The notes below the pieces were generated by a model, which made no database searches, was not told the DNA's origin, and saw nothing but the letters and a program-made list of their open reading frames with translations. Positions 9,000-31,739 of a stretch of DNA of 64,000 bases are shown here, one piece after another. The position numbers and the translations under genes are program-made. This DNA is from an uncultured Planctomycetota bacterium (lineage in GTDB: Bacteria > Planctomycetota > B143-G9), in NCBI GenBank assembly GCA_964571525.1, contig CAZNBY010000001.1, forward strand, positions 4,647 to 68,646. The letters are read 5' to 3'. Numbering within the stretch: the stretch's first letter is position 1; every line of letters begins with the position of its first letter.

Positions 9000-9012
9000 A
9001 CGGGGAGGGAAA

Positions 9013-9882: not shown

Positions 9883-11292
9883 GTGAGCAATGAAGGTAAG
9901 AATGAAAAAGGCCGTCGGCCTATGCCGAAACAGCTCGAGCACGAGCGAATAAAGAACTTCGACGAGGTGGCTCTTGGCTACACCGAGGAGCTTGCGCGGC
10001 AGGAAGCGGCGCGCTGTCTAAGCTGTAAGAAGGCATTCTGCTCCGAGGGCTGCCCAGTGGGCATTGACATACCGGCATTCATCAAGTGCATCAAGGAGGG
10101 GCGCTTTGGTGACGGAGTCCGCACCATAAAGGCAACCAACGCCCTGCCTGCGATCTGCGGCCGCGTGTGCCCCCAAGAGGAACAGTGTGAAAAGACATGC
10201 ATTTTGGGCAAAAAGGGCGAACCAGTCGCCATTGGGCGCCTCGAACGCTTTCTTGCCGATAGAGAGGCTGCAGAGGGCAAGATAGAAAAACCACCCATTG
10301 CATTCCCAACAGGCCATAAGGTGGCAGTTGTTGGCGCAGGTCCCGCCGGAATCACTGTTGCGAACGATCTCTGCTTGCTTGGACACGATGTCACGATATT
10401 CGAAGCACTGCACGAACCCGGTGGCGTATTGACCTACGGCATACCCGAATTCCGCTTGCCAAAGGCAATTGTTAAGCGTGAGGTAGATTATATCAGATCG
10501 CTTGGAGCAACGCTGAAGCTCGATTACATAGTTGGAAAGACACGAACCGTTGACTCTTTGCTTGCAGAATACGATGCCATGTTCATCGCCTCCGGCGCGG
10601 GTCTCCCATGGTTTCTTGGTGTGGATGGCGAGAACTACAACGGCGTTTACAGTGCGAATGAGTATCTTACACGCGTGAATCTTATGAAGGGCTTTCTTTT
10701 CCCCGATTACGATACACCCATCAAACGGCCATCTGTGGTCTGCGTGGTGGGCGGCGGCAATGTCGCGATGGACAGCGCACGGACAGCGATAAGGCTTGGC
10801 GCGGACGAGGTTCATATAGTCTATCGCCGAAGCAAGAACGAGCTGCCCGCCCGCCTTGAGGAGGTTGAGAACGCTGAGGAGGAGGGAGTCATCTTCGACC
10901 TGCTGACACTTCCCACAAGGGTTGTTGGCGACAAACTGGGTTGGGTTACAGGGCTTGAGTGCCTAAAGATGGAGTTGGGTGAACCCGATGAATCGGGAAG
11001 GCGCAAGCCTATTCCTGTTGAAGGCTCTGACTTTGTGATGAAGGCAGATGCGGTGGTCGTGGCGATTGGCAACAGCCCGAACCCATTGATACCACTCACC
11101 ACACCCGGCCTTGAGATTGGGCGCAAGGGCAACATTGTTACTAACGAACTCGGACGCACATCGCGGCACAATGTGTGGGCTGCGGGCGATGTTGTCACAG
11201 GCGCGGCAACAGTGATAAGCGCGATGGGCGCGGCTCGCATCGCCGCAAAATCAATGCACGATTATCTTATGAACCTACCAACGAACAAGTGA
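9883..11292 (+). CDS. nfnB: NfnB/SudA (GltD-like) large subunit
   Basis: EAARCLSCKKAFCSEGCPV, CGRVCPQEEQCE, GAGPAG, YGIPEFRLP, GGGNVAMD, YRRS, AGDVVTG. Confidence 0.93.
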   Translation: MSNEGKNEKGRRPMPKQLEHERIKNFDEVALGYTEELARQEAARCLSCKKAFCSEGCPVGIDIPAFIKCIKEGRFGDGVRTIKATNALPAICGRVCPQEEQCEKTCILGKKGEPVAIGRLERFLADREAAEGKIEKPPIAFPTGHKVAVVGAGPAGITVANDLCLLGHDVTIFEALHEPGGVLTYGIPEFRLPKAIVKREVDYIRSLGATLKLDYIVGKTRTVDSLLAEYDAMFIASGAGLPWFLGVDGENYNGVYSANEYLTRVNLMKGFLFPDYDTPIKRPSVVCVVGGGNVAMDSARTAIRLGADEVHIVYRRSKNELPARLEEVENAEEEGVIFDLLTLPTRVVGDKLGWVTGLECLKMELGEPDESGRRKPIPVEGSDFVMKADAVVVAIGNSPNPLIPLTTPGLEIGRKGNIVTNELGRTSRHNVWAAGDVVTGAATVISAMGAARIAAKSMHDYLMNLPTNK

Positions 11293-11303
11293 GCAAAGAT
11301 AAG

Positions 11304-11648
11304 ATGCATCTGAGCGAAATTGTCGTATTGCTTGACTGCGAAGTGCTTTGCGGGACAGAAAAACTCGACATTGAAATTACCGCCGTAGTCGCATCTGATG
11401 GAATGAGCGAGATATTGGCCTTTGCTCGTTGCGGAGAGCTTATGATTACAGGTCTGACGAATATACAGTCAATTCGAACAGCCGATATTGCCGGAGTCAG
11501 CGCAGTCCTTTATTGCCGTGGAAAAGTGCCCGCAGAAAATGTTGTGGAGCACGCAAAGCTGAAGGGAATACCAGTTCTGATATCTAAGCTGGGAATGTTC
11601 GAAATCTGCGGCAAGCTCTATGTTGCGGGTCTGAAGGGGGTGTCCTGA
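11304..11648 (+). CDS. DRTGG-domain protein
   Basis: ASDGMSEIL...MITGLTNIQSIRTADIAGVSAVLYCRGK; start at ATG 11304. Confidence 0.85.
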   Translation: MHLSEIVVLLDCEVLCGTEKLDIEITAVVASDGMSEILAFARCGELMITGLTNIQSIRTADIAGVSAVLYCRGKVPAENVVEHAKLKGIPVLISKLGMFEICGKLYVAGLKGVS

Positions 11649-12085
11649 TGCCGGTCGAGCTTCTCCGCCAAGAATTCACTGTGCAGGGACGCAACTTCGA
11701 CAAGGCGGGCGAGGTATCGAGCGAGATAAAGGTCATACTCAAAGGGCTTGGCATAGACGGCGAAATAATCAGGCGGGTCGTTGTCGTCTCTTTCGAAGCC
11801 GAGATGAATGTCACGATGTATGCTACGCGTGGCATAATATCTTTTGTGCTAACTGATGAAAGCATCGAGTTGACGATCAAAGATGAGGGACCGGGCATAC
11901 CGGATATCGAGCTTGCGATGCAGGAGGGCTATTCGACCGCTTCTGATGAAATGCGCGAAATGGGTTTCGGCTTCGGTATGGGGCTTCCCAATATGAAGAA
12001 GAACTCGGACATTTTTCGCATCGAGTCAACTGTCAATCAAGGCACAACCGTTTACTCCATAATAGGGCATAACGCAAGTGCTTAG
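11648..12085 (+). CDS. RsbT/anti-sigma-like HATPase_c Ser/Thr kinase
   Basis: N-box EAEMNV, G1 DEGPGI, G2 GFGFGMGLPN; coupled to the preceding stop. Confidence 0.88.
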   Translation: MPVELLRQEFTVQGRNFDKAGEVSSEIKVILKGLGIDGEIIRRVVVVSFEAEMNVTMYATRGIISFVLTDESIELTIKDEGPGIPDIELAMQEGYSTASDEMREMGFGFGMGLPNMKKNSDIFRIESTVNQGTTVYSIIGHNASA

Positions 12086-13388
12086 CCTAAAACACGGTTT
12101 TAAGATAAACACTACACTATGCAACGGATGCATGTCATGTATGAGGGCATGCCTGACCGAAGCACTGAGAATACGAAAAGGGAAGGCCGTTTTGATTCCC
12201 GAAAAGTGCATAGACTGCGGTATGTGCCTTCGCGTCTGCCCTGTCGGTGCGATCGTCGCAGCAACGCTCGATACTGCATATCTGAGCGGATTCAAGCTGA
12301 AGGTTGCTCTGCCCTCTGCTGTCCTTTACTCGCAATTTCCACAGTGTGACACGCCAGCAAGCATAAATCGTGCTTTAAAGCTCTGCGGATTCGATGAGGT
12401 GTGGGATCTTTCAACTGAAATAGAGCTTGTCAATCGTGCAATTCGCGATTGCCTGCAGAACTGGAAGGGGACATATCCACTTATCTCAAGCTCTTGCCCG
12501 GTGATAGTCCGCTTGCTTCAGGTCGCCTATCCCACAATGGTCGGGCAGATATTGCCGATCGAAGTCCCACGCGAACTTGCGGGGCGCGCCCTGAAAAAAC
12601 ACTATTCAGAAAAGTATGGCATTTCAGAGGACGACATCGCTGCAATCTACATCACCCCCTGCCAAGCCAAGACAATCTCAATATTTAAACCCGCCGAGCA
12701 AGTTAAGAGCATCCTTGACGGAGCTATTGGAATTTCTGAGTTGTATAACAGGCTCTTGTACACGATGAGGGAAATGGAGGAGATGAATCCAGACGATAAA
12801 TGCGATATCGGATCGGATCTGCTGCTAAGTTGGGCTACACCAGAGGGACAGGCGTCGAATCTATCACGCCATCGCTATCTTCAGATAACCGGTCTGCCAA
12901 ATGTGATACGAGTTTTCGACGATATCGAAAAGGGCAAGCTGAGGAACATTGACTTTCTTGAATGCTACGCCTGTCGCGGCGGTTGCATTGGTGGTAACCT
13001 GACAGTTGATAATGTCTATGTCGCCCGAGGAAAGCTGCTTCATTTGATGTCGCAGCGACGCGAGCCCTCACAGAAGTTTAAGGACGAGGTTGAAAGGCGC
13101 TATCAGACCGAAGATTTTTCGCTAAAAGCACCAGTCAAGCCGCGTGCGCAGACGCCTGACGGCGCCGGCCTTCTTGAGCGGGTAAAACGCCGCAAAAAGG
13201 CTGAAGAGGTATTCAGCATTCTTCCCGGCCTCAACTGCGGGCTGTGTGGCGCGCCCAACTGCCGTGCACACGCTGAGGATGTCTCAGCGGGCGAATCCTC
13301 TGCCGATCACTGCGTAATACTCTCAAAAGACCGCATTGACTACCTTCGCAGCATATATCTAAAGAGGAAAAACGCCGATACGGAGTGA
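12078..13388 (+). CDS. group D-like (putatively sensory) [FeFe]-hydrogenase, HydS-like
   Basis: N-terminal 2x[4Fe-4S]; H-domain motifs SSSCPV, ITPCQAK, ECYACRGGCIGG; C-terminal PGLNCGLCGAPNC Fe-S domain. Confidence 0.85.
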   Translation: MLSLKHGFKINTTLCNGCMSCMRACLTEALRIRKGKAVLIPEKCIDCGMCLRVCPVGAIVAATLDTAYLSGFKLKVALPSAVLYSQFPQCDTPASINRALKLCGFDEVWDLSTEIELVNRAIRDCLQNWKGTYPLISSSCPVIVRLLQVAYPTMVGQILPIEVPRELAGRALKKHYSEKYGISEDDIAAIYITPCQAKTISIFKPAEQVKSILDGAIGISELYNRLLYTMREMEEMNPDDKCDIGSDLLLSWATPEGQASNLSRHRYLQITGLPNVIRVFDDIEKGKLRNIDFLECYACRGGCIGGNLTVDNVYVARGKLLHLMSQRREPSQKFKDEVERRYQTEDFSLKAPVKPRAQTPDGAGLLERVKRRKKAEEVFSILPGLNCGLCGAPNCRAHAEDVSAGESSADHCVILSKDRIDYLRSIYLKRKNADTE

Positions 13389-13393
13389 CGGGG

Positions 13394-14917
13394 TTATTTT
13401 CCCCCCGCACACCATTTCGACCATGCTGGGATGAGGGCTCGGAGACTCGTGTCTTTCGAGCTTTCAGGATGCGGCGAGCATAACACCACACGCCCCTTTC
13501 CAAACGGTGCCCGTATCATCGCGTCTGTTCCCGGCATCACTCCGGCAGGCGCCCCATTTTCGGCAAATTCACCCCGATAAATGCCCAACACCTCGTATTT
13601 CGGCAAATCGCCTTCCTTGCGCGGCACAAGTAACGGCCCCTGACCGTAATATACATTAACCAACCCCGCAGCCCTTCCGATTAGTGATGCACCTGCCTTT
13701 GAAAGCTCAATCTCAACTGTTCCACTGCCACGCGCCCAATGCGCCGAGTCCTTCACATCAGCCCGTATTATCCCAAGTGACCATGAATAATAGGCCGTTC
13801 CAAGATACGCGCCAGCGCAGATGCCTATGTAACCACCCCCGTTCTTGACGAACTCGACAACCCGCTCACGACCCTCTTTGGTAAGAGCCGTCGCAATCGA
13901 AGAACCACTGCCCCCGGGGAATACAACCACATCGAACTGCGCAAGACCGCCATAATATACGGTTGCTGCCGCGATGCGCCTTATTTGCGCCCCTGTTACG
14001 CCCTCATAGCACCTTTCTACTGGAAATGCGCTGCCTGCTCCTGCGCCTGTATCATCATAAATCGCAACCCGATGTTCGTTGGCTTTCTTTTGTTCAAAGA
14101 AGAAAGTATCAACTGGGCACGGTACCATGCCCAGTTCAACAAGCAGCAGATTGGCCAGCATAGCGCACCGTCTTTGCGCCGCGCCCGCATGTTCAGGCGC
14201 ACTGGTTACCCTCAGAGCCTTACACTTAAGCACCTTTCGCGCAGCCCCCGCAGGCGACCCGTTCAAAGCATCGTTCAACTGTACAAATCCATGCCTTTCT
14301 ATACCAGAGGGCATATCGGCATTAGTTTGTGCGATAAGTTGCGGGAGCAGTTTCTCTTCATCGCCTCCCGGCCAATATGAGACCGTGTTGCCAAAACTCG
14401 GACGCAAGTCTGTTGAGTTCTGAAGATAGTCGCGCGATGATCTAAACTCGATAACCCAGTTTGGCTTGGCATCGCAGATAGTATGCCAGATTGCAGCCAC
14501 AATGGGATGAGGTTCTTTGGCAGATTCGATGCCCGAAAAAGCTGTTGCCAGAGAAAAGGCGCTTTTACCATCCACACCTGCTACGGTGCGCACACCGCTA
14601 ATGCATCCCGCCTCATTTGCGCGCGGTATCACGGTCAGCTTGCCCTTCTCTACGCGCCATTGACTTATCTGCTGCGCGACAGCCCGTGTTACAGGTTCAT
14701 CCCCATTCAACCCACCGATCAACACGATGGAAGGACCCTCTTTACCGCTATTGTATGTGTATGCGACCGTCGAAAATGGTGTATCCGGTGCAATTGTGGT
14801 GCTTACCCAAACCGGAACAACATCCGCAGGAGCAGTCTTCTGCTCTGCAAAGCAAAGCCCAAAGACACTTATAAGCGACATGCAAAGAGCTATGTGTACG
14901 ATAATGCGAATCTTCAT
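13394..14917 (-). CDS. secreted protein: M14/AstE-like domain plus BPL_N (class I GATase-like) domain
   Basis: Signal peptide from ATG 14917; GGLNGDEP and VIPRAN (M14-like); FPGGSG, GICAGAY, SPHPE (GATase-like). Confidence 0.75.
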   Translation of the reverse strand: MKIRIIVHIALCMSLISVFGLCFAEQKTAPADVVPVWVSTTIAPDTPFSTVAYTYNSGKEGPSIVLIGGLNGDEPVTRAVAQQISQWRVEKGKLTVIPRANEAGCISGVRTVAGVDGKSAFSLATAFSGIESAKEPHPIVAAIWHTICDAKPNWVIEFRSSRDYLQNSTDLRPSFGNTVSYWPGGDEEKLLPQLIAQTNADMPSGIERHGFVQLNDALNGSPAGAARKVLKCKALRVTSAPEHAGAAQRRCAMLANLLLVELGMVPCPVDTFFFEQKKANEHRVAIYDDTGAGAGSAFPVERCYEGVTGAQIRRIAAATVYYGGLAQFDVVVFPGGSGSSIATALTKEGRERVVEFVKNGGGYIGICAGAYLGTAYYSWSLGIIRADVKDSAHWARGSGTVEIELSKAGASLIGRAAGLVNVYYGQGPLLVPRKEGDLPKYEVLGIYRGEFAENGAPAGVMPGTDAMIRAPFGKGRVVLCSPHPESSKDTSLRALIPAWSKWCAGGK

Positions 14918-15534
14918 TATCGTCGTGGCTTTCTCGTTGGCACGGCTTGCGTCGCCTTGCACGCTTCGATCTTACCGAGCACTTTAGGGATATCTGTGTG
15001 GCAACTATCCAACCAATCCTTGTCGTTTTCAGCATTCCACTTTTCAAGAATCATTGCCCGTTTCTTTGCATCTTCCAGGTGATTTCTCAGCATGCCCCAT
15101 ATGTTCTTATCATTTTTATCATAATCAGGCAATTTATCTTTTAGTTTCTGACGCATTTTCCAGCGATCATTTTTTATCTCTTTATCGCTGAAGTGCAGAT
15201 AGAACCATAATTCCATACACGGATTAGACACGCAAAGCATTATCTTCTTTTCCTTCCTGCATGCCTCATATACACGAATAATTGAATCATGCTCGATACC
15301 ATCACATACAATAATTGCCTTATCTATCCTCTGATCCTTACTTTTTATTTCATCCTGCGCTTTTTGGTACAGGGTTTTTGGGTCAGGTCCTGCAGTTACA
15401 ATCGACACAGTTTGCCTTGAAATGTGAAGTTCTTTCCTATATCCCTCAAGATAGTTACATTCCGATGCCCCTTCACAAAGAATCAAAAGAGATAGCTCAG
15501 ATGGAATCCGTGCGTTTTTCCCTTTTCGCGTCAC
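14917..15534 (-). CDS. rloB: RloB family protein (TOPRIM-like)
   Basis: LILCEGASECNYL, IIVCDG, SNPCMELWFYLHF, A.KRA..L. Confidence 0.88.
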   Translation of the reverse strand: MTRKGKNARIPSELSLLILCEGASECNYLEGYRKELHISRQTVSIVTAGPDPKTLYQKAQDEIKSKDQRIDKAIIVCDGIEHDSIIRVYEACRKEKKIMLCVSNPCMELWFYLHFSDKEIKNDRWKMRQKLKDKLPDYDKNDKNIWGMLRNHLEDAKKRAMILEKWNAENDKDWLDSCHTDIPKVLGKIEACKATQAVPTRKPRR

Positions 15535-16853
15535 TTTCCCTCCTCCGTGTCGCCAGTAAGAACGCTCTCATCTGGGAGATCAATGACGGGGATGCCCCCG
15601 TACTTGCCGACGAAGTACCGGTCGCGTATGTTGTGCCTTTGGGGGTCAATGCCATCAACATCCCATAGTGAGTATATGCTCGATGCTCCGTTCACCTTTT
15701 GTACGATATTTATCTGGTCCCGCCTCAGCAGGTCCATGTCGAGCAGTTCAAGATCGTGGGTTGTGAATATAAGCTGCGCTCCCTTCTTGTTGAGCTTTTC
15801 GCTTCTAAAACACTCGATTATCATCGCGGTCAGATGTGTGTGAAAGCTCGTATCAATCTCATCAACAACAAGGCATCGCCCGTTATTAACTACATCAATC
15901 AAAGGACCAACAAGAGATAAGAAAGCCCGAGTCCCCTCCGATTCATCTTCATAATTTATCGTTCTTGAGCATTGATTATTGGCTTTGTCAATCGCCTTAT
16001 GGCTCATCTTTGCCATTACTCGCTCAGTATTTCGCAGCTTTTCCGACAATTCGTTCGGTATTCTCTCTTTACCTCTCACCGAACTTAAATACTCGTAATA
16101 GTTTCCTTCATATGTCGAGATATCTTCAATGTCAATATCTGCAGCTTTTAAGAAGGAAATTACAGCGTTCTTAAAATTGTTGTTCCTATGAATATTATAT
16201 AGAGTGTAATGCTCCAATACTGAAAGCTCGCTAGGAAACTTGAAACTGTCACGGAACCATGACAAAGCTTTTTTTGAACTCTCCATGTTAAAGCTACTCG
16301 TTACAGCAAGAAAGGATGAGTTTGGTCGCGTCATTGCCTCCAATGCTTTTAACGCTTTTTCATGATTTTTCCCGTATTGATATACATATTTATTGCTTTC
16401 TTCGAGGCTCCGCCTATAAATTAGATCACTTACTCTACCTCTTTTACATTTTAAACATTCGTACGATATATACCTGGTGGTTGCATGCACTTCATAGTCA
16501 AACAGCATGTCATCAACTACATATTTTACCGAAAATTTCGATGGCCTCTCCATCATTGCATCATCCCACCTAAAAGGCTGTATGCTCTCGGGGAGCAAAT
16601 TCTCGTCTGTTAATGAGAAAATAGCAATCTTCCAGATCGCTTTGAGTGCTCGCATCATATTCGACTTGCCAGCGGCATTTGGGCCGATTATGCCCGCGTA
16701 TTTAAGCAAACCTGCCTTGCCAGCAGCGGGGTTGCCTTTATACACATTGTGAGGATGCATCTTCGCACCAGCCCTATCCTTGGCTGGCACCATCGAAAGC
16801 ACTGCCTCGTCGCGAAACGACCGAAAGTTAGAGACCTTGAACTCTACAAGCAT
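15531..16853 (-). CDS. RloA-like ABC-type (AAA_21) ATPase
   Basis: FKVSNFRSF, Walker A GPNAAGKSN, signature ESEGT, Walker B DEIDTSFH, QLIFTTHD; start at 16853 after GGAGG. Confidence 0.9.
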   Translation of the reverse strand: MLVEFKVSNFRSFRDEAVLSMVPAKDRAGAKMHPHNVYKGNPAAGKAGLLKYAGIIGPNAAGKSNMMRALKAIWKIAIFSLTDENLLPESIQPFRWDDAMMERPSKFSVKYVVDDMLFDYEVHATTRYISYECLKCKRGRVSDLIYRRSLEESNKYVYQYGKNHEKALKALEAMTRPNSSFLAVTSSFNMESSKKALSWFRDSFKFPSELSVLEHYTLYNIHRNNNFKNAVISFLKAADIDIEDISTYEGNYYEYLSSVRGKERIPNELSEKLRNTERVMAKMSHKAIDKANNQCSRTINYEDESEGTRAFLSLVGPLIDVVNNGRCLVVDEIDTSFHTHLTAMIIECFRSEKLNKKGAQLIFTTHDLELLDMDLLRRDQINIVQKVNGASSIYSLWDVDGIDPQRHNIRDRYFVGKYGGIPVIDLPDESVLTGDTEEGK

Positions 16854-16880
16854 AATGCCCTCCACATGCGTGTAAATGGC

Positions 16881-16969: not shown

Positions 16970-17593
16970 TCACTCCACCTCTTCGAATATCTCGCTTAAC
17001 GGCTTTTTGGGTGCTTGGGTGATCGCGCCGTCGGGTCTGCCCATTGCAATCAGCGCTTCGAGCCGCCACGGTTTTACCACATCAAGTGCAAACTCAAGCT
17101 CTGGGCGGGCGATTACAGGGCCTGATAGCCAGCAGGTTCCATATCCAAGCGCGGTTGCCGCAAGCAGAAAGTTTTCAACCGCAGCGCCCACCGAGGTGTA
17201 ATCTGGCATACCACGCATCTCGTTCAACTCCTGCGCGCTGAGACCGAGTTTGTCGAGCACTGGGGTCATAACGCTTTCATAAGGGCGCATCAGCACCGCG
17301 ACGACAACCGGAGCATCTGCAAAAAAGGTTGAATACCACTTCACCTTGCGCGCGATCTCGGCGTCAACCGGCGCGGCAGAGAACAACCGGTCGAGTTTCA
17401 CACCAACCACTTTGCCCATCTCATTAAGCTTGGCACTGTTAAACACGGCGACAAATTTCCACGGTTGCTCATTGTGCGGACTTGGTGCGCGACCAGCGGC
17501 TTCAACGCACTTCTTGACTATATCGCGTGGTACAGGCTCGTTTGTGAATTTACGCTTGCTGCCGCGAGCGGCGATGGTTTCGAACAATTCCAT
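16970..17593 (-). CDS. nitroreductase family protein
   Basis: IAARGSKRKF, APSPHNEQPWKF, ENFLLAATALGYGTCW. Confidence 0.9.
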   Translation of the reverse strand: MELFETIAARGSKRKFTNEPVPRDIVKKCVEAAGRAPSPHNEQPWKFVAVFNSAKLNEMGKVVGVKLDRLFSAAPVDAEIARKVKWYSTFFADAPVVVAVLMRPYESVMTPVLDKLGLSAQELNEMRGMPDYTSVGAAVENFLLAATALGYGTCWLSGPVIARPELEFALDVVKPWRLEALIAMGRPDGAITQAPKKPLSEIFEEVE

Positions 17594-17680: not shown

Positions 17681-19015
17681 TTAGGCTTTGACTATCTTGC
17701 CAGAACCTTCGTCAAGGTGCGCGAAGGCATTGCGGGTGTCAACTATCAAAGGAAGCGAGTCATAAAGCCTCTTGTAGTCAAAGCAAGAATGTGCCGTAAC
17801 CAACACGCCAGCGTCGAAGCTATGCGCGGCGATTTCTTCAATTTTCAGCGATTCGCCGGGTTTCTTGATGCCTGTCTCGTGCGGCATTTTGGGAATAAGC
17901 GGGTCGAAATATTCGAATTTTGTGTGCGCTTTCTTCAATAGTCTCATAACGGCGATGCAGGGCGACTCGCGTATATCGGCGATGTCTGGCTTGTACGCAA
18001 GCCCCATCACAAGCACCTTTGCCGTTGAAAGCTCCTTTCCGCGCCTATTCAATTCCTCTTCGAGCCGCTTAAGAACATAATGCGGCATACGCCTGTTTAT
18101 TGTGCCCGCAAGCTCGATGAATTGCGAATTAACGCCATATTGTTTAGCGCGATAGGTCAGATAGAACGGGTCAACCGGGATGCAATGGCCGCCCATTCCC
18201 GGCCCAGGATAGAATGCGGTAAATCCGAAAGGCTTTGTCTTCGCAGCGTTAATGACCTCCCAAATATCAATGCCCATAGCATCGTAAACGGTCTTAAGCT
18301 CGTTGACGAGAGATATATTCACTGCACGGTATATGTTCTCAAGCACCTTCGCCGCCTCTGCGACCTTGCAAGACGACACAGGCACAACCTCGTCAACTAT
18401 AGCCGAATAAAGCGCCAAGGCTTTCTGGCGCGCTGAATCGCAATCAGCACCGACCACCTTGGGGATCTTCGCAGTGTGAAAATTCTTGTTGCCCGGATCC
18501 TCTCGCTCCGGCGAATATGCCACATCGAAATCCGTCTCGACCTTTAGCCCCGATTTCTCAAGCTCAGGCACCATTATCTCCTCGGTTGTTCCCGGGTATG
18601 TGGTGCTTTCAAGTGTAACAAGGTCTCCACGCTTGACATATTTGGAGATTAGTTTCGACGCGTTGATCACAAAGCTTAGGTCTGGCTTGTGGTGATGATC
18701 AAGAGGAGTGGGCACGCAGATTATGTACGCTTGTGCGGGTTTCAGGTCATCAGAGTCGCATGTCGGCAAAAACCTGCCTGTCGCAAGCGCGTCGCAGAGC
18801 CTCTGTCTCGGCACAGTGATAAGCCGAGGGTTGCCCTGCTTAAGCTCGAAGATAAGCGATTGAGAAAGATCATACCCTATGACGGTGAACCCCCGTTCGA
18901 CCATCGTAAGAGCTAATGGCAGACCCACATAACCAAGCCCGATCACTGCGGTCTTGATGGTGCGGTCTTTCACGGATGCTACAAATTCTTCAGTGCGCTT
19001 TTTGTTAGTTCCCAT
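17681..19015 (-). CDS. UDP-N-acetylhexosamine 6-dehydrogenase (WbpA/WecC/TviB family)
   Basis: IGLGYVGLP, ICVPTP, ESTTYPGTT, GPGMGGHCIPVDP, AYKPDIADIRESP; start at ATG 19015 (RBS AAGGAG). Confidence 0.92.
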   Translation of the reverse strand: MGTNKKRTEEFVASVKDRTIKTAVIGLGYVGLPLALTMVERGFTVIGYDLSQSLIFELKQGNPRLITVPRQRLCDALATGRFLPTCDSDDLKPAQAYIICVPTPLDHHHKPDLSFVINASKLISKYVKRGDLVTLESTTYPGTTEEIMVPELEKSGLKVETDFDVAYSPEREDPGNKNFHTAKIPKVVGADCDSARQKALALYSAIVDEVVPVSSCKVAEAAKVLENIYRAVNISLVNELKTVYDAMGIDIWEVINAAKTKPFGFTAFYPGPGMGGHCIPVDPFYLTYRAKQYGVNSQFIELAGTINRRMPHYVLKRLEEELNRRGKELSTAKVLVMGLAYKPDIADIRESPCIAVMRLLKKAHTKFEYFDPLIPKMPHETGIKKPGESLKIEEIAAHSFDAGVLVTAHSCFDYKRLYDSLPLIVDTRNAFAHLDEGSGKIVKA

Positions 19016-19209
19016 TCGTACTCCTTGTCTAATGAGAGATGCCGTGCATAACAGGCAAACCGCAGAATATCTGTAAAATCCTAACCGCTTCGGCGTTGTA
19101 TGCAAGCGAGCCACGGTGCGCCGATGTGGCCTTTTTATTGCATCTACCGTTAAGCTCGCGATAATTCGAGGCTTACTCTTATAATGCAATCCGCACTCCG
19201 GAGCCATTA

Positions 19210-21135
19210 ATGCCCTATTATCTAAAGCGCACCAAGCTACCCGACAACCTCGACTATCAAGAGGTTGGATTGATGAGTGGCGTGGAGATTCACCAGCAGC
19301 TCCACACCGAAAAGAAGATGTTCTGCCATTGCCCATCACGCATGTACCGTGAGGACTTCCACACCCAGGTGCTGCGCCACATGAGGCCGACCATGAGCGA
19401 AATGGGCGGTTACGACGGCACAGCTCTGATGGAATTTAAAAAGAAGAAAGAGATCATCTACCTCGTTAACAAAGCTTCGACCTGCACATACGAGCTTGAC
19501 GATACCCCGCCGTTCCTTGTGAACGAAAAAGGGCTTGATATCGCGATTGAGATCGCGCTAATGCTCAACTGCTCGATGGTTGACGAACTGCACATAACCC
19601 GCAAGCAGTACCTTGACGGCTCGATTCCGACGGGATTTCAGCGTACTGCCATTGTCGGTGTCGAAGGTCACATACCCGTTGACGGCAAAAAGATACGCAT
19701 AATACAACTTGGGTTCGAAGAGGATTCATGCCGCGAGGTTTCGGACATTCGCCACACTATCACCTTTCGCCCAGACAGGCTCGGAATGCCGCTGATTGAG
19801 GCTGTTACCTACCCAGATATGACGCACCCCGTTCAGGTTGCCCGTGTTGTCGAGGTTCTTGGCCGTATTTTCCGCACGACAGGCCATGTACGGCGTGGAT
19901 ATGGTAGCGTTCGCCAGGATGTCAATGTATCAGTTCGTGGTGGCACGCGCATTGAAATCAAGGGTGTCCCCCGCATTCCGTTCATCCCGATGCTTGTTCA
20001 TGTTGAAGCAATGCGTCAGGTGCGTCTGCTTGAGATCCGTTCGCAACTTCACTTGCGCGGTTTCACAGCTTTCGAGTCAATAGTCTCAGACGAGGCCGAT
20101 GTCACTGCACTGCTTGCCAACACAAACCAGCCGATTCTCGCCAATGCGTTGCGCCGTGGCGACAGACTCGTTGCGACATGCATCCGCGGCGTCGCTGGGC
20201 TTACAGAATACCAGACCCAGCCTGCCCGTATATTCCAAGACGAGATTAAAGGCCGTCTGCGCGTCGTTGCCTGTCTTGACGAAAAGCCGTATTGCATGTC
20301 AACAATTGACTTCAACGAACATGGTCTGACCCAAGACGAGATTGACACACTGCATCGCACCTTAAACGCGACAGACCGCGATGTTGTCTTTCTCGTTTGG
20401 GGTAACGAGCGCGATTCGAAACTTGGCGCATCCGAAATTCTTCTTCGCTGGCGCGAAGCGGTTCTCGGCATACCGAGCGAGACCCGTCAGCACTTCCCCG
20501 ACGGTCACACAGATTATGAGCGCACTCTTCCTGGACCCGAGCGCATGTATCCTGATACAGACTCGCCGCCTCTTCAGATCGGAAAGGCTCGCATTGAGAA
20601 GATACGCTCGGCTCTCCCCTCTCCTCCGTGGGAGCGTGAGGATCTACTGCGCGCATTTGGGCTGCCTGAGGATGTTGTATATCATCTTGCCATTTCAAAG
20701 CACTACAACCTGTTCTGCCGCGTAATAAACGAGCTGCATGTCAATCCGATCATTGTGGGTGTTGTGCTGTTCCGCGAGATGAAGGCTCTGTATCGCAGCG
20801 GCGTCCGCACCGAGACAGTGAGTGACGATACGCTGTTTGGCATCTTCAAGCTCTACGCCGATGGCAAGCTTGTGCGCGAGGCAATCTCAAAGGCAATTGC
20901 CGCCGCAACCGAGCATCCATCCTGTTCTGCGGATTGCATCGTAAAGACCGCAGAGCTTGAACCTCTTTCGGATGTTGAGGCGAAGGCAGAGCTTGATGCC
21001 GCAATTTCAAAGGCTGCAACGCTTGAGTTCGCTGCAGAAGACAAGAAATCACGCTTCATCATGGGCAATGCAATGCACAATCTGCGCGGCAGATTTGCTG
21101 GTGTAAAGCTCGCGATGATGCTTAAAAATTCATAG
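19210..21135 (+). CDS. gatE: Glu-tRNA(Gln) amidotransferase subunit E (GatE)
   Basis: GVEIHQQL..KKMFC.CP, RPTMSEMG..D..A..E, ELDDTPP, RKQYLDGS.PTGFQRT, EEDSCR, RQDVNVS, AspRS-like insert, LPGPERMYPDTD; 641 aa, GatE-sized rather than GatB-sized. Confidence 0.9.
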   Translation: MPYYLKRTKLPDNLDYQEVGLMSGVEIHQQLHTEKKMFCHCPSRMYREDFHTQVLRHMRPTMSEMGGYDGTALMEFKKKKEIIYLVNKASTCTYELDDTPPFLVNEKGLDIAIEIALMLNCSMVDELHITRKQYLDGSIPTGFQRTAIVGVEGHIPVDGKKIRIIQLGFEEDSCREVSDIRHTITFRPDRLGMPLIEAVTYPDMTHPVQVARVVEVLGRIFRTTGHVRRGYGSVRQDVNVSVRGGTRIEIKGVPRIPFIPMLVHVEAMRQVRLLEIRSQLHLRGFTAFESIVSDEADVTALLANTNQPILANALRRGDRLVATCIRGVAGLTEYQTQPARIFQDEIKGRLRVVACLDEKPYCMSTIDFNEHGLTQDEIDTLHRTLNATDRDVVFLVWGNERDSKLGASEILLRWREAVLGIPSETRQHFPDGHTDYERTLPGPERMYPDTDSPPLQIGKARIEKIRSALPSPPWEREDLLRAFGLPEDVVYHLAISKHYNLFCRVINELHVNPIIVGVVLFREMKALYRSGVRTETVSDDTLFGIFKLYADGKLVREAISKAIAAATEHPSCSADCIVKTAELEPLSDVEAKAELDAAISKAATLEFAAEDKKSRFIMGNAMHNLRGRFAGVKLAMMLKNS

Positions 21136-21158: not shown

Positions 21159-21199
21159 ACGCCCGCTGGTCGGATTTACCGCCCTGCGGGCGTTTTTTT
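21159..21199 (+). terminator. putative terminator of gatE
   Basis: ACGCCCGC/GCGGGCGT stem (long loop) followed by T run. Confidence 0.55.
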
Positions 21200-21208
21200 G
21201 TGCGTAAG

Positions 21209-24651: not shown

Positions 24652-25431
24652 TCAGAAGGTCGCTGTAAGTGAAATGGTTGTCCAGAAGTTGTCGTCTTTC
24701 TCCATTATCTTTCTGTGATCAGAATCCAATAGCGTGGAATAGTGGAAGGCAACTGTCAGAGCCCAGTTGTCGCTTATCTGAAAGGGAAGCGTTGCATGAA
24801 GCGTGAAATCTGTTAGCGCGGATTCTTTAAGGCCGAAGTAATATTCGTTGTCCTTGGCAGTGCCGTACCCAATGCTTGCGGATAGCCCAAGACTCACATT
24901 CATGCCGTTATCAAATGTATAAAGGTCGAATGAGTGGCTTGCCGCGAGGGAAATCCAGGTGCCTTTGGCCTCGTCAAGATCTTGATATACAAGAATTTTA
25001 GGCGACAGAAGTGTGTCATAACCAGCTACTGCATATAGCTCAATCGTGTTGTTAAGGCCGGTCGTCGGGTATTCGTAGAGCGCAAGGCCAACCGAGAAGC
25101 TGAACTTCTCTATTGCAAAAGAGTAGTCGAGCGTGTAGTCAATTTCAGTAATATCGCCTGAAGGCTTGTCGTTGTCAGGATACGAGTTGTAATCGCTGGT
25201 TTCGATGCTTGCCCAGACGATAAGCGAAAGCCCTTTCCATGATCCAGTTACTGACGGCCATATAACAGGGTCATCATTGAAATTCAGGCCGCGCCAGATG
25301 TATTTGCTCGAATAGGTAAGGTCAACCGTTACGCTCCATTCCTTATCGTCGGCGACAGCCACGCGCGGCGCGATGAACGATAAAAGCACTAAGGCAAACA
25401 GAAATACTGATACAAAAAGCGGATTCCTCAT
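24652..25431 (-). CDS. outer-membrane beta-barrel, TorF/TIGR02001-like putative porin
   Basis: Signal peptide from ATG 25431 (RBS GGAGG), SKYIWRG, amphipathic strands, terminal Phe. Confidence 0.75.
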   Translation of the reverse strand: MRNPLFVSVFLFALVLLSFIAPRVAVADDKEWSVTVDLTYSSKYIWRGLNFNDDPVIWPSVTGSWKGLSLIVWASIETSDYNSYPDNDKPSGDITEIDYTLDYSFAIEKFSFSVGLALYEYPTTGLNNTIELYAVAGYDTLLSPKILVYQDLDEAKGTWISLAASHSFDLYTFDNGMNVSLGLSASIGYGTAKDNEYYFGLKESALTDFTLHATLPFQISDNWALTVAFHYSTLLDSDHRKIMEKDDNFWTTISLTATF

Positions 25432-25925
25432 TTTAACCTCCGAAAAGTTAGTGTTCAGCCGGTGTTGGGCGAAGGTGTTCGCGCACCGGAGGGGTTTGCC
25501 CAATTGCCCTAATACGCAGTTGAGCCATCTTTCGACGGCGAAGTTTTGCGCATTAGAATCGTATCTGAACGGCAAAATGAAGAGTTCAGCGGGAGTATCC
25601 GCTGATTTCCGCAGTCCATTTTTGTTGAGGAGCAACCGCTTAGAAAGCGCCGGTAGGTTCGATAAGAGGGAGGTCAACCGAAACATGAGACCGACGCGAG
25701 GCGACTTTGCCCCAACCGACGGCCTGTGCGCGCAGCCTGCACGCACCGCCGTCATGGACGGTGGATACTCATGTTTTGCCGGTTTTCCTATAGATGAATG
25801 CGTTGCCTTTGCGAAGCATCATATACCCGAATTGTAGATGTTTTGCCCGTTGTGCAAGAAAATACGCAAATGAATTTGTTGTTCGCAAGGAACCGCGCGA
25901 AGTAGTTGGTCTTCCCTTGCCTTGC

Positions 25926-27107: not shown

Positions 27108-27307
27108 CGATCGCTTAATAGCAGTCAACGCTATTAAACGATAGCGCCTTTTCGTTTAATTACAAGAGGAATTACGAGTTGTGATTGGTGAGACACAAGA
27201 TAAGAATGCGGATATTCAATCAGTTAGGAAAGAAGGTGTGTCTTTATACAGCGATCGATTAATAGTGCGGAGCGTAATTAAACGATAACGCCTTATCGTT
27301 TAATTAC
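27108..27307. repeat. two 56-bp direct repeats containing palindromes, upstream of fic
   Basis: 27108-27163 and 27252-27307 match at 45/56 positions; copy 2 holds a perfect 15-bp-arm inverted repeat (27274-27307). Confidence 0.85.
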
Positions 27308-28617
27308 GGTGCTGTTTTCGGCTCTTTTTCTGCCTGACCAGTCTGCCATTCGGCGCGAATACGGCGGATTATCACCTCTTGCGCAGCCTCCTCCATGTTT
27401 GGCAAAAGCCCAAAGTCGCGCTCCCACAGCTTTTGAACTGCAAGCGCAGCCTCAAGCCTTACCTTAAAATCTCGCGTATAAAGCATCTCTGCTATCTTTG
27501 CAAGATGAACCTTATCGCCTAAATCGGATAGGCACCGCAAAACCTCGACAAGCACATCGGGATTCTCATCGGGCGTAAGAAGCTCGCTTACACGCTGGTG
27601 GAAACGCTCGACCTTTAAGAGCCGCACAACACGCACCGCCGCCCTTTTAAGCTCTTTATCAGGAGAAGCGAAAAACCGTGACAAAAGCGGTACTATCTCT
27701 GTAACATTCCATTCTGCAAGCTGTTCGAGCACCATCAGCAAAAGCTTGCTTTCGGCTGCCTCGGTTGCGACTATCTTAACAAGATATGGTGTCGCGACCT
27801 CCCTTCCGAGCGCAACAAGCGCCTCAAGCGCGCGAAGTCGAAATGGCAGCCCGGCTCCCGGTGAACAAAGCACATCGCCCAACAGCTCTCTGCACTGCAC
27901 GCCACAACGCTCGGCTGCAAGCGCGTATTCAATTTTAAGCTCAAGCGGCGAGTTCTTATCGAATGCGCCCTTTGCAAATCTCTCGCCCCATAACTTGCTC
28001 TTTGTATATCCTAAAACATATACCGCCCCCATCTGAAGTGCGATATTGCGAAGTTTGAGCCACGCCTCGGCGATTGAAAAAGCGGCCGAACTGTCAGATA
28101 TAAACAGAATCCTTAGAGCGGATAGTCTGACGGACTCAGAGAACATTTCGAACGATATTGCCCGCGTAGCGAGCCATACACAGGCAGCGTCGCCCATAAC
28201 CGATTCAACTAATTCGGCGTTTTCAAACACGCCTTCGAAAAGCATCCGTTCGCAAAACGCAAGATACCGTAAAGCGTCGTTTTTGGCAATTGTGGATGCG
28301 TTTGGCTCGATCTGATCAAGCACTGCTATCCGGTCTGCGACAATCTGCTCGAAATCTTTCGGATGAAAAACTGGTGATACATTCTGTTGAATCAGGAGCA
28401 AATACGACAGTGCGCGCGTCGCGCCCGCAGCGTCGTTTGCTATTTGCGCTTTGTCGAATTCCGCAATCGCATCTGTTACAGTGCTACTTGCCGGAATATC
28501 AGCCTTAGGCTCTTTAGTTTTTTCAGGCGGTTTCAACGATGTCTCTGCCTCACCAAGGCAGGTGAGAAACGCCAATGCAAAGGCCAATAGTATCAGTTGT
28601 ACCCAATGTTTAGCCAT
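27304..28617 (-). CDS. exported HEAT-repeat protein
   Basis: Signal peptide; repeated LRLRALEAL / LKRAAVRVV / VRLEAALAV helices. Confidence 0.75.
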   Translation of the reverse strand: MAKHWVQLILLAFALAFLTCLGEAETSLKPPEKTKEPKADIPASSTVTDAIAEFDKAQIANDAAGATRALSYLLLIQQNVSPVFHPKDFEQIVADRIAVLDQIEPNASTIAKNDALRYLAFCERMLFEGVFENAELVESVMGDAACVWLATRAISFEMFSESVRLSALRILFISDSSAAFSIAEAWLKLRNIALQMGAVYVLGYTKSKLWGERFAKGAFDKNSPLELKIEYALAAERCGVQCRELLGDVLCSPGAGLPFRLRALEALVALGREVATPYLVKIVATEAAESKLLLMVLEQLAEWNVTEIVPLLSRFFASPDKELKRAAVRVVRLLKVERFHQRVSELLTPDENPDVLVEVLRCLSDLGDKVHLAKIAEMLYTRDFKVRLEAALAVQKLWERDFGLLPNMEEAAQEVIIRRIRAEWQTGQAEKEPKTAP

Positions 28618-29373
28618 CTATTTACCCAATAACAGACGCTGGGCGAGAAAGTTGTCAAGGTCGGCTATTGCAAGAATCTTCTTCACAGACGCCTCGACAT
28701 CATAGGGAATGCGAAAGTACCTGAATCCAGTCTTCTCAAGCACCACATAACAACTGCGCCGGTCGCGGTCACGCGGCTGGCCAATCGAACCGACATTTAC
28801 TATCATCTTCTGGTCGAACGGATAGAAACGCCCCGGGTTGGGAATAATTATGTCGTCGCCAAGGAATATGCGCGGCAGGTGCGAATGTCCGATAAAAAAC
28901 ACATCGCACGCCGGGTACTTTTTGAAAACCTTCTGCGCATCGTTCACGCTGCGAACATACTTCGAACTGCCGGGCTCAAGGGGTGTATCGTGGAAGAACA
29001 ACATGCCATCGTGCTCGAACATGCGAGGCAGTCTCATAAACCGCTCCCAAAGCTCGCGCTTCGCTTTGACGGTCTTAAAAGCCATCAACTGCTTGTGCAT
29101 AGCTGGATCGAGCATCTTTCGGGTCCATTCTGATGCCCTTCTGGCAATGGGATTGAAGCTCGGCGGTATCTCGTAAAGTACAGCCTCGTCGTGGTTGCCG
29201 ATTATGCTGCGTTCAAATGTGGGCAGATATTGAGCGACTTCAAGTGGATCGGGGCCGTAGCCAACAAGGTCACCCAAGAAGAAAATTCGCGTGATGCCGC
29301 GCGCCTTGATATCGTCGAGAACGGCGCTTAGTGCGGCAATGTTTGAATGAATATCAGAGATAAGTGCAATCAT
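28618..29373 (-). CDS. metallophosphoesterase (calcineurin-like)
   Basis: DIHSN, GDLVGYG, GNHD, GHSH, NVGSIGQPRD. Confidence 0.92.
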   Translation of the reverse strand: MIALISDIHSNIAALSAVLDDIKARGITRIFFLGDLVGYGPDPLEVAQYLPTFERSIIGNHDEAVLYEIPPSFNPIARRASEWTRKMLDPAMHKQLMAFKTVKAKRELWERFMRLPRMFEHDGMLFFHDTPLEPGSSKYVRSVNDAQKVFKKYPACDVFFIGHSHLPRIFLGDDIIIPNPGRFYPFDQKMIVNVGSIGQPRDRDRRSCYVVLEKTGFRYFRIPYDVEASVKKILAIADLDNFLAQRLLLGK

Positions 29374-31739
29374 TAAGACGGGGTCTCCGCCGATGTAAGC
29401 GAGAGCATAGTCAGTTTTCGGCGTATCAGCAAATCAACTCTCGCTCTAAGCCTCGGCGGGGAAAACGGCTTTGTAAGATAATCGTCTGCGCCAACATCAA
29501 GTCCCTCTTTGCGTCCTTCCTCCTCTGAGATAGCGGTCAGCAACATAATGGGTATCTGGGAAGTTTCAAGGCTTGCGCGTAGCTGTGCGCACACCTCAAA
29601 GCCTGTCATGCCGGGCATCATCACATCCAACAACATCATGTCTGGCAGGTGCTTGCGTGCAAACATAAGGCCATCAGCACCGTTTTCGGCTTCTATAATA
29701 GTCGCGAACTTATCCTTCAGTGTCGTCCGCGTGACCTTGCGTATCATCTTGTCGTCGTCAACTATTAGCAGCAGTGGGCGCTCAATCTTTTCAGGTTCAC
29801 CAAGTGCCTTCTTGTCGCATTCATTGGTAGGTGGCTCGGCGACCTGCGTAACCTTGCGGGGCAGCTCATTACCGCATTGTTTACAAAAATGCCATTGCCG
29901 TTTTATTGGTGTTGCGCATTTGCAGCAGTGAAAGCCCAACTTGTAACCACAAGCCGGACAGTTGAAGAACTCGTATTCAACGCTTGTGTTACAGTTTGGA
30001 CAGAGCAACACCTCAACCTCACTCACCTCGATAACACGAGAAAGCTCGGCAAGTGATGTGAAGCCCGAATACACTCTGCGCAGACCGGCCATGTAAAGAG
30101 TATCCATGCCATTCTTTACCGCACGGTGCAGCAGTGCGCGGTCGTTTCTGCCCTCTAATATCATCTCGCGCAGATCTTGGTCAATCATCAATATCTCGAA
30201 CACCGCCATACGACCGCGATAGCCTGAAAAACCACACTTCTCGCATCCTACAGGCTCATAAAAAGCTTGCCCGGGCTTATACGGTAGAATGTCCATTATC
30301 CGCGACAATATCTTATCATCTGGCTTGTGAACTCGTTTGCAGTCGGGGCACAGCTTGCGCACAAGCCTTTGCGCAATGACGCCCAATAGCGAGCTTGCAA
30401 TAAGAAAACGGTCAACGCCAATATCAATCAGGCGGGTTACCGCGGATGGCGCATCGTTTGTATGGAGTGTTGACATAACAAGGTGACCGGTGATGGATGC
30501 CTTTATAGCAATTTCTGCCGTCTCACCGTCTCTTATCTCGCCTATCATTATTACATCTGGGTCCTGGCGAAGAATTGACCGCAACGCCTTGGGAAAGGTC
30601 AATCCTGCCTTTACATTCACCTGAACCTGATTTATCCCCGCCAAGTTATATTCAACAGGATCCTCAACCGTTATGGTGTTGTTGTCTTCTGTGTTAATCT
30701 TCTGAAGCACCGAGTACAGCGTGGTTGATTTGCCAGAGCCGGTTGGGCCGACGACAAGAAACACACCATACGGACGCGAGATTATTGACTCCAAACGCTC
30801 CCGTTCGACAGGCAGAAGATTAAGATTGTCGAGGCCGATTATGTTCGATGTCTTGTCAAGAAGACGGATGACTACCTTTTCGCCGTATATCATCGGAAGA
30901 GTGGAGACGCGAAGATCAAATTTCTTTCCCCGCGTGGCTATAAAGGCTCTGCCGTCCTGCGGTATCCGTTTCTCGGCAATATCAAGGCCAGACATAATCT
31001 TTAATCGCGCGACAACCCGCGTGGAAAGCGCCATTGGAAGCCGCATTATTGTGCGAAGCATACCGTCAACACGGAACTTCACATATAGGATTCGCTCTGT
31101 GGGTTCGATATGTACATCCGACGACTTCATCCGCACCGATTCAGACAATATAAGATTCACGAGCCTAATAATTGGATTGGATGAAGAGCCTGCCTCAAGG
31201 CCACCACCGTACTCATCTGTCTCAGCGTCATCAGAATCAACGAACGAAATCTCGTCCTCATCAACCATGATGTTTTTCAGGACATCGTATATCGAGTCAT
31301 CTACCTCGTTGACCTTTTCTATGGCGCCTTTTATGTCGCTTGCGCGTGCAAGATGTGTTCGGACGGCCATTCCTGTCTGGCGTGTTACTTCGTCAATTAT
31401 GCTCACATCGAGCGGGTTGCTCATCGCGACGAACAACTCTCCGTTGTCCTTCTTATATGGCAAAACACCGTTCGATATGGTGAATTTGTAGTTGAGCAGT
31501 TTGGCGGCGTCAGGGTCAACACCTGCATTGGCAAGATTTACAACAGGAATCCGCGTGAAAACCTGCATCCATTTGAAAATATCGTCCTCAGTAACAAATC
31601 CCATTTCGACAAGCACATCCTGAAGCGGACGCTTTGCGCCCTTCTGATGCTCCTTTGCCTCACTTAGCTGCTCGAGCGTTATCTTGCCCGACTGTATAAG
31701 GTACGCGTCGAGCTTGACGCGCATCGTGTTGCTTGCCAT
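29373..31739 (-). CDS. pilB: PilB/GspE-type secretion ATPase with double zinc ribbon and C-terminal receiver domain
   Basis: SDVHIEP, GPTGSGKST, TVEDPVE, LRQDPDVIMIGEIRD, TLHTND; four CxxC pairs after the ATPase; REC motifs VDDD, LLDVMMP, LTA, KPF. Confidence 0.92.
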   Translation of the reverse strand: MASNTMRVKLDAYLIQSGKITLEQLSEAKEHQKGAKRPLQDVLVEMGFVTEDDIFKWMQVFTRIPVVNLANAGVDPDAAKLLNYKFTISNGVLPYKKDNGELFVAMSNPLDVSIIDEVTRQTGMAVRTHLARASDIKGAIEKVNEVDDSIYDVLKNIMVDEDEISFVDSDDAETDEYGGGLEAGSSSNPIIRLVNLILSESVRMKSSDVHIEPTERILYVKFRVDGMLRTIMRLPMALSTRVVARLKIMSGLDIAEKRIPQDGRAFIATRGKKFDLRVSTLPMIYGEKVVIRLLDKTSNIIGLDNLNLLPVERERLESIISRPYGVFLVVGPTGSGKSTTLYSVLQKINTEDNNTITVEDPVEYNLAGINQVQVNVKAGLTFPKALRSILRQDPDVIMIGEIRDGETAEIAIKASITGHLVMSTLHTNDAPSAVTRLIDIGVDRFLIASSLLGVIAQRLVRKLCPDCKRVHKPDDKILSRIMDILPYKPGQAFYEPVGCEKCGFSGYRGRMAVFEILMIDQDLREMILEGRNDRALLHRAVKNGMDTLYMAGLRRVYSGFTSLAELSRVIEVSEVEVLLCPNCNTSVEYEFFNCPACGYKLGFHCCKCATPIKRQWHFCKQCGNELPRKVTQVAEPPTNECDKKALGEPEKIERPLLLIVDDDKMIRKVTRTTLKDKFATIIEAENGADGLMFARKHLPDMMLLDVMMPGMTGFEVCAQLRASLETSQIPIMLLTAISEEEGRKEGLDVGADDYLTKPFSPPRLRARVDLLIRRKLTMLSLTSAETPS

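Follow-up and report, generated by a model that had tools for sequence, protein, structure and literature searches.

The gatE locus

The window, that is the whole stretch of DNA analysed here, covers 64,000 nucleotides of contig CAZNBY010000001.1 from an uncultured Planctomycetota bacterium. It carries gatE, a gene for the E subunit of GatDE, the Glu-tRNA(Gln) amidotransferase that the literature describes as archaeal. The gene, the domains of its product and the features that border it are listed below, with positions counted from the first letter of the window.

19210..21135, plus strand: gatE coding sequence, 641 amino acids (aa) plus stop, ATG start; Glu-tRNA(Gln) amidotransferase subunit E
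19276..20595, plus strand: GatB/GatE catalytic 'cradle' domain, interrupted by an insertion, residues 23-462 (PF02934, E 2.4e-51)
20143..20409, plus strand: aspartyl-tRNA synthetase (AspRS)-like, GAD-type insertion domain, residues ~312-400; weak PF02938 match, discriminates GatE from GatB
20767..21129, plus strand: C-terminal YqeY-like tail domain, residues 520-640 (PF02637, 28.1 bits, above the cutoff of 27)
19016..19209, no strand: divergent intergenic region between the dehydrogenase gene and gatE; TATAAT at 19180-19185, GGAG at 19200-19203, 6 nt before the ATG
21180..21202, plus strand: GC hairpin CGCCC-TGC-GGGCG with a T-run after it, resembling a terminator, 45 nt past the gatE stop
17681..19015, minus strand: nucleotide-sugar (UDP-sugar) dehydrogenase, divergent neighbour of gatE, 444 aa (TIGR03026, 403 bits)
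16970..17593, minus strand: nitroreductase-family gene, second upstream synteny anchor, 51% identical to the copy on the related contig L183

Given the divergent gene upstream, the convergent sodium/solute symporter gene on the 3′ side and the hairpin with its T-run, gatE constitutes its own transcription unit, as a preliminary description of this DNA, made from the letters alone, had proposed in calling the gene monocistronic. A putative promoter could lie within 19016-19209; a consensus scan upstream of gatE found no full sigma-70 promoter match. In composition the gene is native to the window: its GC content is 0.532 and its GC content at third codon positions (GC3) 0.586 (z ~ +0.7 relative to 31 genes of the window), and its codon-usage distance ranks 12th of 31, in agreement with the likeness to the flanks pointed out earlier.

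The product is a full-length GatE

The open reading frame (ORF) at 19210-21135 on the plus strand encodes a full-length, true GatE and not a GatB, and is an additional member of the known GatE family. The protein scores 541.1 bits against NF003107, the NCBIfam equivalog model of GatE (cutoff 456), and 481.1 bits over residues 13-640 against TIGR00134 gatE_arch (cutoff 319.55). It stays under all cutoffs of six GatB models (69-146 bits vs 315-680), the top-scoring of them giving 145.6 bits for a cutoff of 338, and these models match only residues ~100-277. In phmmer alignments that run from one end to the other, it matches the two GatE chains of known structure, 1zq1_C (E 1.5e-107) and 2d6f_C (E 1.3e-100).

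The match to PF02934 (GatB_N) extends over residues 23-462 for 277 profile positions, which leaves ~165 extra residues. Within these, residues 312-400 match PF02938 (GAD) weakly (E 0.052, below cutoff; profile positions 3-88 of 95), and the same family is recorded in the precomputed annotation of several close homologues. The region aligns to the GatE chains of the PDB with short gaps only, so that the insertion that sets GatE apart from GatB is present. Residues H28, E170 and E197 correspond to His15, Glu157 and Glu184 of Methanothermobacter thermautotrophicus GatE in the alignment with 2d6f_C, where they are the essential Mg2+ ligands (PMC2330236); the full set of ligands is therefore kept, and the three residues are invariant across the 51 homologues of the family alignment. 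An AlphaFold2 model built with these 51 homologues has a mean predicted local distance difference test score (pLDDT) of 87 and a predicted template modelling score (pTM) of 0.85. Its fold matches are, in order, the GatE chains (1zq1_C, 2d6f; template modelling (TM) scores of 0.79-0.83, target-normalised), GatB and aspartyl-tRNA synthetases. The helical bundle of the tail is modelled with pLDDT >90; in the solved GatE and GatB, this YqeY-like domain binds the tRNA D-loop (PMC2330236). The initial identification of a full-length GatE with its AspRS-like insertion is thus upheld by the equivalog hidden Markov models, the PDB alignment, the GatB_N span, the weak GAD match and the fold, and the possibility raised at the same time that the protein would group with GatB is dismissed by the NCBIfam models and the fold.

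One segment behaves differently. Residues 56-80 (window 19375-19449) are almost invariant in the 51 homologues, including the close relatives of the window gene that we call the window clade, and they are modelled with pLDDT <50. The residues so conserved are R56, H57, M58, R59, P60, T61, S63, E64, G66, Y68, D69, G70, A72, L73, M74, E75, K77 and K80, and substitutions of the window clade within the segment are few (L62M, L65M, E67G and T78K). Invariance together with low model confidence fits a partner-dependent element, and the segment may be one that becomes ordered only with the partner.

The motif RKQYLDGSIPTGFQRT occupies residues 131-146 (19600-19647). It had been described as unlike the archaeal type, and it does differ from the RKxVIDGSNxxGFQRT of Pyrococcus and Methanothermobacter; however, it is not particular to this gene, being carried by 120 of the 120 nearest homologues (in 110 without change, in 10 with A for T), those labelled Thermoplasmatota included. 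It marks the whole subfamily and not the window gene. Its Tyr and [IL]-Pro are common to the GatB motif RK[NH]YFYPDLPKGYQ, and where they stand the GatEs of Pyrococcus and Methanothermobacter show Val and Asn-x; the subfamily looks more GatB-like in this loop.

A bacterial host and a conserved locus

Other genes of the window that bear on the nature of the host and on synteny are the following.

27304..31739, minus strand: block of HEAT-repeat, metallophosphoesterase and PilB/GspE-receiver genes, whose counterparts on L183 are 37%, 63% and 66% identical
29373-31739, minus strand: PilB/GspE ATPase-receiver fusion
24652-25755, minus strand: MipA-like outer-membrane protein
43263-45401, minus strand: RecG
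54292-56178, minus strand: RpsA (ribosomal protein S1)

A butyrate kinase and a NuoF/NuoG-like hydrogenase cluster are also encoded. The host is a bacterium, since RecG, RpsA and the PilB-receiver protein are found in the window and the closest relatives are named Planctomycetota or Candidatus Brocadiia; together with the MipA-like protein, these genes substantiate the bacterial setting reported at first. The window gene therefore lacks the archaeal host with which GatE is associated. That association is a generalisation about taxa, not a property of the molecule, and it is outdated given that the 80 best hits, presented in the next section, are all bacterial.

The identical gene order was recovered in two independent Logan assemblies, and the sequence is present in ~20 sludge or digester runs from several studies. 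The order nitroreductase, sugar dehydrogenase, gatE is kept on nine contigs, in at least six other metagenome-assembled genomes (MAGs) whose GatE are 68-73% identical to that of the window. The dehydrogenase neighbour is 57-60% identical in contigs L003-L005 and L181-L186, and it is found in every clade member having upstream sequence. The HEAT/metallophosphoesterase/PilB-receiver block lies directly upstream of nitroreductase, dehydrogenase and gatE in the relatives and 6-10 kb downstream of gatE in the window, a difference of position that indicates local rearrangement. A chimeric contig, foreseen as the other possible flaw, is ruled out by the independent assemblies and the conserved synteny, and in the window clade gatE is inherited vertically at a conserved locus. 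This clade, represented in our trees by the window GatE with P0002, P0003 and P0004, is a rare one, with five clusters at 90% identity among 5.8 billion in the protein collection, and its habitat is sludge and anaerobic digesters.

The gene is well preserved there. Of 161 alignment columns with at least 95% conservation in 112 other GatEs, the four clade members all retain 148, and the changes in the other 13 are conservative in most cases, such as L to M. The frame is intact in every clade member spanning the full length (65-73% identical to the window protein), and the sludge contigs show seven strain-level variants, six of them synonymous. This pattern of substitution indicates that the window gatE is under purifying selection.

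Directly after gatE, all the clade relatives encode a protein of 622-639 aa (L003 8429-10348; L014 2035-3939; L181-L186 ~11983-13851). The L003 copy carries a signal peptide of the lipoprotein type, and the protein matches Lactamase_B only faintly. This gene is absent from the window, in which gatE is followed by two solute symporters, a MipA-like gene and a Fic gene.

GatE and GatD in other bacteria

GatDE had been introduced in the preliminary description as archaea-specific, and this does not hold. Relatives were collected by scanning one genome per GTDB species with peptide patterns of the window GatE, and the best 80 of 191 were examined: all are bacterial MAGs, closed chromosomes among them (Kapabacteria, 3.8 and 5.5 Mb; Phycisphaerae, 5.4 Mb). 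In 73 of these 80 species representatives gatD is downstream of gatE, at 450 bp or less in 71, and three of the other seven loci are too short to judge. Similarly, 80 metagenome contigs from the Joint Genome Institute (JGI) contain gatD in the locus in 67 cases (63 directly downstream); seven are too short and six show none in the available flanks. The operons of the relatives are surrounded by LptD, FtsX, RecO and outer-membrane β-barrel genes. A homologue search returned 8000 matches, and the names in the best 120 are Candidatus Brocadiia, Planctomycetota, Phycisphaerae, Aminicenantales and Ignavibacteriae MAGs together with Thermoplasmatota archaea. The mostly bacterial GatE clade spans Planctomycetota, Phycisphaerae, Ignavibacteria/Kapabacteria, Acidobacteriota, Aminicenantes, Neomarinimicrobiota and others, while proteins bearing the name GatD occur in MAGs of Omnitrophota, Acidobacteria, Zixibacteria, Edwardsbacteria, Zhuqueibacterota, Bipolaricaulota, KSB1, GN15 and Marinimicrobia. 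The recurrence of gatD downstream of gatE in both sets, over many phyla, makes GatDE an established bacterial system; it is common in uncultured bacterial phyla, and annotation pipelines already label it.

Linkage of the two genes is not universal. A gatE without linked gatD occurs sporadically within clades that otherwise have them adjacent (L038, L067, L107, L123, L124 and L168). In Thermoplasmata-labelled relatives (L176 4732-9938; L177 6385-11246), gatD is divergent from gatE and forms a separate unit, with a glutamine synthetase gene between or beside the two. These cases imply that physical separation is tolerated. As a side observation, the placement of glutamine synthetase links amide-donor supply to the amidotransferase in these relatives.

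Phylogeny was addressed with distance-based neighbour-joining (NJ) trees, midpoint-rooted, in which archaeal sampling is thin and classical archaeal GatE is represented by two sequences (Pyrococcus and Methanothermobacter). The window clade is small and long-stemmed and branches inside the bacterial radiation. All bacterial GatEs together are sister to a Thermoplasmatota-labelled clade (~46% identity), and the two classical GatEs fall outside, at 33-35% identity to the window protein. An archaeal origin of the whole bacterial GatE clade would fit this tree, and its midpoint rooting, the NJ method and the thin archaeal sampling leave the direction of transfer not established. Of the old archaea-to-bacteria transfer put forward initially, the age is borne out by the native composition, the single locus and its persistence in lineages 68-73% identical; the idea of an isolated import is not, as the gene belongs to a large bacterial clade.

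Proposed function and probable position of gatD

We propose that the window gene is probably the E subunit (kinase/transamidase) of a bacterial-type GatDE whose GatD gene would lie elsewhere in the genome. On the model of the solved archaeal enzyme, GatE would bind Glu-tRNA(Gln) coming from a glutamyl-tRNA synthetase of the non-discriminating kind, and phosphorylate the glutamate side chain with ATP and Mg2+ by means of the ligands H28, E170 and E197. GatD, the asparaginase-type subunit, would then supply ammonia through a tunnel, this ammonia would displace the phosphate, and the product would be Gln-tRNA(Gln) for translation. In archaeal GatDE the two active sites are connected by a tunnel of 40 Å and their activities are tightly coupled (PMC2330236). 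In the window lineage gatD would not be co-transcribed with gatE and most likely resides elsewhere on the chromosome. Enzymatic activity, the unlinked gatD in the same genome and the role in translation are what we infer for the window GatE.

Several results weigh against this proposal. The operon arrangement with gatD immediately downstream is not that of the window, and a tblastn search of the whole 64 kb with five bacterial GatDs found no gatD (best E 0.03 over 44 aa), just as the preliminary description had reported none beside gatE. None lies within up to 10 kb of gatE, as far as flanks exist, in 14 clade contigs either (L001-L005, L014, L016/L017 and L181-L186). Scanning genomes and metagenomes with the window GatE gave only two clade contigs, both without gatD nearby, and a cluster look-up added six clade MAG contigs, again all without it. 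Searches with GatD proteins, which were not aimed at one genome, gave none attributable to the window clade among the best 120-150 matches, and this lack is absence of evidence only; when the query was the GatD of the nearest lineage with adjacent gatD, the best 120 matches were all bulk bacterial GatDs, ~70% identical. On the tRNA side, no tRNA-Gln gene, sought for its 1:72 base pair, is present in the window or in any retrieved locus. As to expression, gatE is covered at the depth of its neighbours in contigs from four RNA-Seq-labelled sludge runs, and such contigs tend to end in intergenic regions, that at 19016-19209 included. This hints that gatE is expressed, with the reservation that runs so labelled may contain DNA.

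Could the clade have lost gatD altogether, its GatE amidating phosphorylated Glu-tRNA(Gln) with free ammonia or with the ammonia of an unrelated amidohydrolase? We regard this as unlikely, and as slightly less likely again its one-subunit form, a GatD-independent GatE arisen after true loss of GatD and served by free ammonia or an unrelated donor enzyme. Such a loss would account for the lack of gatD within 10 kb in every clade member examined despite the conserved gatE locus, and for the lack of a clade GatD in our searches, but these searches could not have detected an unlinked gatD. The sludge and anaerobic-digester habitat would also suit it, free ammonia being abundant in anaerobic digesters and sediments. 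At the level of the protein, four columns that are at least 96% conserved elsewhere are altered in all four clade members (L65M, T78K and T188P, with L62M in two), and the clade-specific changes cluster near residues 62-78. Yet these changes are few and mostly conservative, and the conserved surface, segment 56-80 included, is not relaxed, contrary to what is expected after partner loss. We know of no GatE that acts alone in vivo. The tunnel that joins the active sites and their tight coupling also argue against independence from GatD (PMC2330236).

A neofunctionalised GatE, redundant with GatCAB or glutaminyl-tRNA synthetase (GlnRS) and carrying out another ATP-dependent phosphorylation or amidation, on a different aminoacyl-tRNA or a non-translational substrate, seems improbable to us. 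The separation from gatD, the long stem branch of the window clade and the conserved neighbours, which are a nucleotide-sugar dehydrogenase and a nitroreductase with no translation genes, would speak for it. However, transcription of the dehydrogenase gene is divergent and does not imply a functional link, and an Acidobacteriota clade with a stem of similar length, judged by eye, has an adjacent gatD; besides, the tRNA-binding tail, the AspRS-like insertion and all the catalytic residues are kept and the GatE equivalog cutoffs exceeded. That the gene is the decaying relic of a former gatE-gatD operon, heading for loss, would agree with a locus devoid of gatD, but is very improbable and contradicted by the conservation data: intact frames, 148 of 161 columns kept, six of seven variants synonymous, to which the RNA-labelled coverage can be added. 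Finally, the description of GatDE in the literature as a signature protein of archaea could suggest archaeal DNA mis-joined to a bacterial contig, or a contaminated bin. The chance of such an artefact is negligible; it is refuted by the two Logan assemblies, the ~20 runs, the nine syntenic contigs and the native composition, as well as by bacterial gatE on closed chromosomes of 3.8-5.5 Mb. Overall, the conservation pattern favours a bacterial-type GatE working with a distant GatD over another ammonia donor or a non-translational role.

GatD-like sequences encountered in the searches

Some sequences were considered as GatD of the window clade, or as a substitute for it, and rejected. The conserved ORF of 622-639 aa that follows gatE in the relatives has a lipoprotein-type signal and no confident Pfam family, and is not in the window. 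P0243 is from Asgard archaea, P0244 is a GatD-like protein that may be catalytically dead, and P0397/P0245 belongs to a gatE-gatD operon of its own in an unrelated genome of 34% GC.

P0244, on a 4.5-kb contig, deserves a few words. Its asparaginase motifs are destroyed (GAGGALASR for GTGGTIASR, STGVATM for GHGTDTM, and AASERPPDHPSADG in place of GSQRSSDRPSSDA) and its identity to the intact GatDs of one group (P0401, P0403, P0412 and P0415) is 60-63%; it may represent a catalytically dead GatD paralogue. P0242, of 943 aa, may be a fusion protein, its residues 481-935 being a GatD 53% identical to P0122. A very divergent, overlapping gatE-gatD pair is found on L178 (2691-5991; Logan SRR14699991, 34% GC): its GatE and GatD are 34-39% and 44-47% identical to all others, respectively, and no GatD_N domain is recorded by Pfam, while its GatE keeps RKQYLDGSIPTGFQRT intact.

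Other features of the window

The cluster at 4596-13388 (plus strand) encodes NuoF-like, NuoG-like, NADPH-dependent glutamate-synthase-like and [FeFe]-hydrogenase-like proteins. Small DRTGG and histidine-kinase-like ATPase genes belong to it as well, and the whole suggests a hydrogenase module that is regulated and electron-bifurcating. At 14917-16865 (minus strand), an RloB-family gene is paired with an AAA_15/AAA_21 ATPase gene. The pair has a GC content of 0.41-0.44 vs 0.51 for the window, is not in the syntenic region of relatives L181-L186, and looks like an inserted defence-type gene pair. Further along the minus strand are a 467-aa ORF (47136-48539, GC 0.44) with a weak match, far below cutoff, to the retron Eco8 effector endonuclease, and two giant ORFs. 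One of them, of 1571 aa (49462-54177), has no family match; the other, of 1689 aa (58875-63944), contains an M36-like metallopeptidase region and a CFI-box-CTERM sorting signal, and its GC content of 0.57 is the maximum of the window.

Significance and comparison with known systems

GatDE was called an archaeal signature protein in a review of 2008 (PMC2330236), and according to a review of 2022 it is now found only in archaea (PMC9499178); in the literature available to us, searches turned up no paper on bacterial GatDE. These reviews use the archaeal-only distribution to argue about the content of LUCA (the last universal common ancestor) and the lack of GlnRS acquisition by archaea (PMC2330236, PMC9499178). 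The window adds to evidence, hitherto unremarked, that GatDE is widespread in uncultured bacteria, closed chromosomes included, a broader pattern that should be moderately surprising to specialists of tRNA-dependent amidotransferases. If the bacterial enzymes are active, one may ask whether they share the work with GatCAB, as in archaea, and whether the bacterial clade was inherited or transferred. The window clade, which maintains gatE without linked gatD, is a natural experiment. The situation is either trivial, the gene having moved, or a route to a glutaminase-independent amidotransferase, and a GatD-independent GatE would, if true, be the first case in which a tRNA-dependent amidotransferase is known to function in vivo with no glutaminase subunit dedicated to it.

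The solved archaeal GatEs, from M. thermautotrophicus (2D6F) and Pyrococcus abyssi (1ZQ1), share with the window protein the cradle, the AspRS-like insertion, the helical region, the YqeY-like tail and the Mg2+ ligands. They differ from it by an identity of 33-35% only and by the motif RKxVIDGSNxxGFQRT vs RKQYLDGSIPTGFQRT, while on the window side the host is bacterial and no gatD is nearby. Bacterial tRNA-Gln has the first base pair U1-A72, whereas archaeal GatDE reads A1-U72 (PMC2330236). The tRNA identity rules may thus differ between the window GatE and archaeal GatDE, and how an active bacterial GatDE would handle U1-A72 in place of A1-U72 is a further question.

The closest archaeal-labelled sequences are the Thermoplasmatota-labelled GatEs P0022, P0083 and P0099, ~46% identical, with the same motif and in the position of sister group in the NJ tree. 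Unlike the window, these genomes have gatD close by on the opposite strand, with glutamine synthetase beside or between. The labels are the submitters' own, and one record (CP070751.1) is a contig of 5.16 Mb, large for the class. The bacterial gatE-gatD operons of Phycisphaerae, Ignavibacteria/Kapabacteria, Aminicenantes, Acidobacteriota, Omnitrophota, Zixibacteria and other groups, so named in MAGs by NCBI annotation, encode GatE of the same subfamily as the window, with 44-53% identity and the same motif and conserved columns. In these operons gatD is downstream, mostly at 450 bp or less, whereas the window clade has another downstream gene and no gatD within 10 kb.

GatB of GatCAB is a more distant counterpart. 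It lacks the AspRS-like insertion, has GatA and GatC for partners and is only 15-20% identical in structural alignments. Nevertheless, its cradle and tail are paralogous to those of the window GatE, with fold matches at E ~1e-20, the chemistry of phosphorylation and amidation is shared (PMC2330236), and the two proteins have in common the Tyr and [IL]-Pro of the motif RKxY...[IL]P.G[FY]Q.

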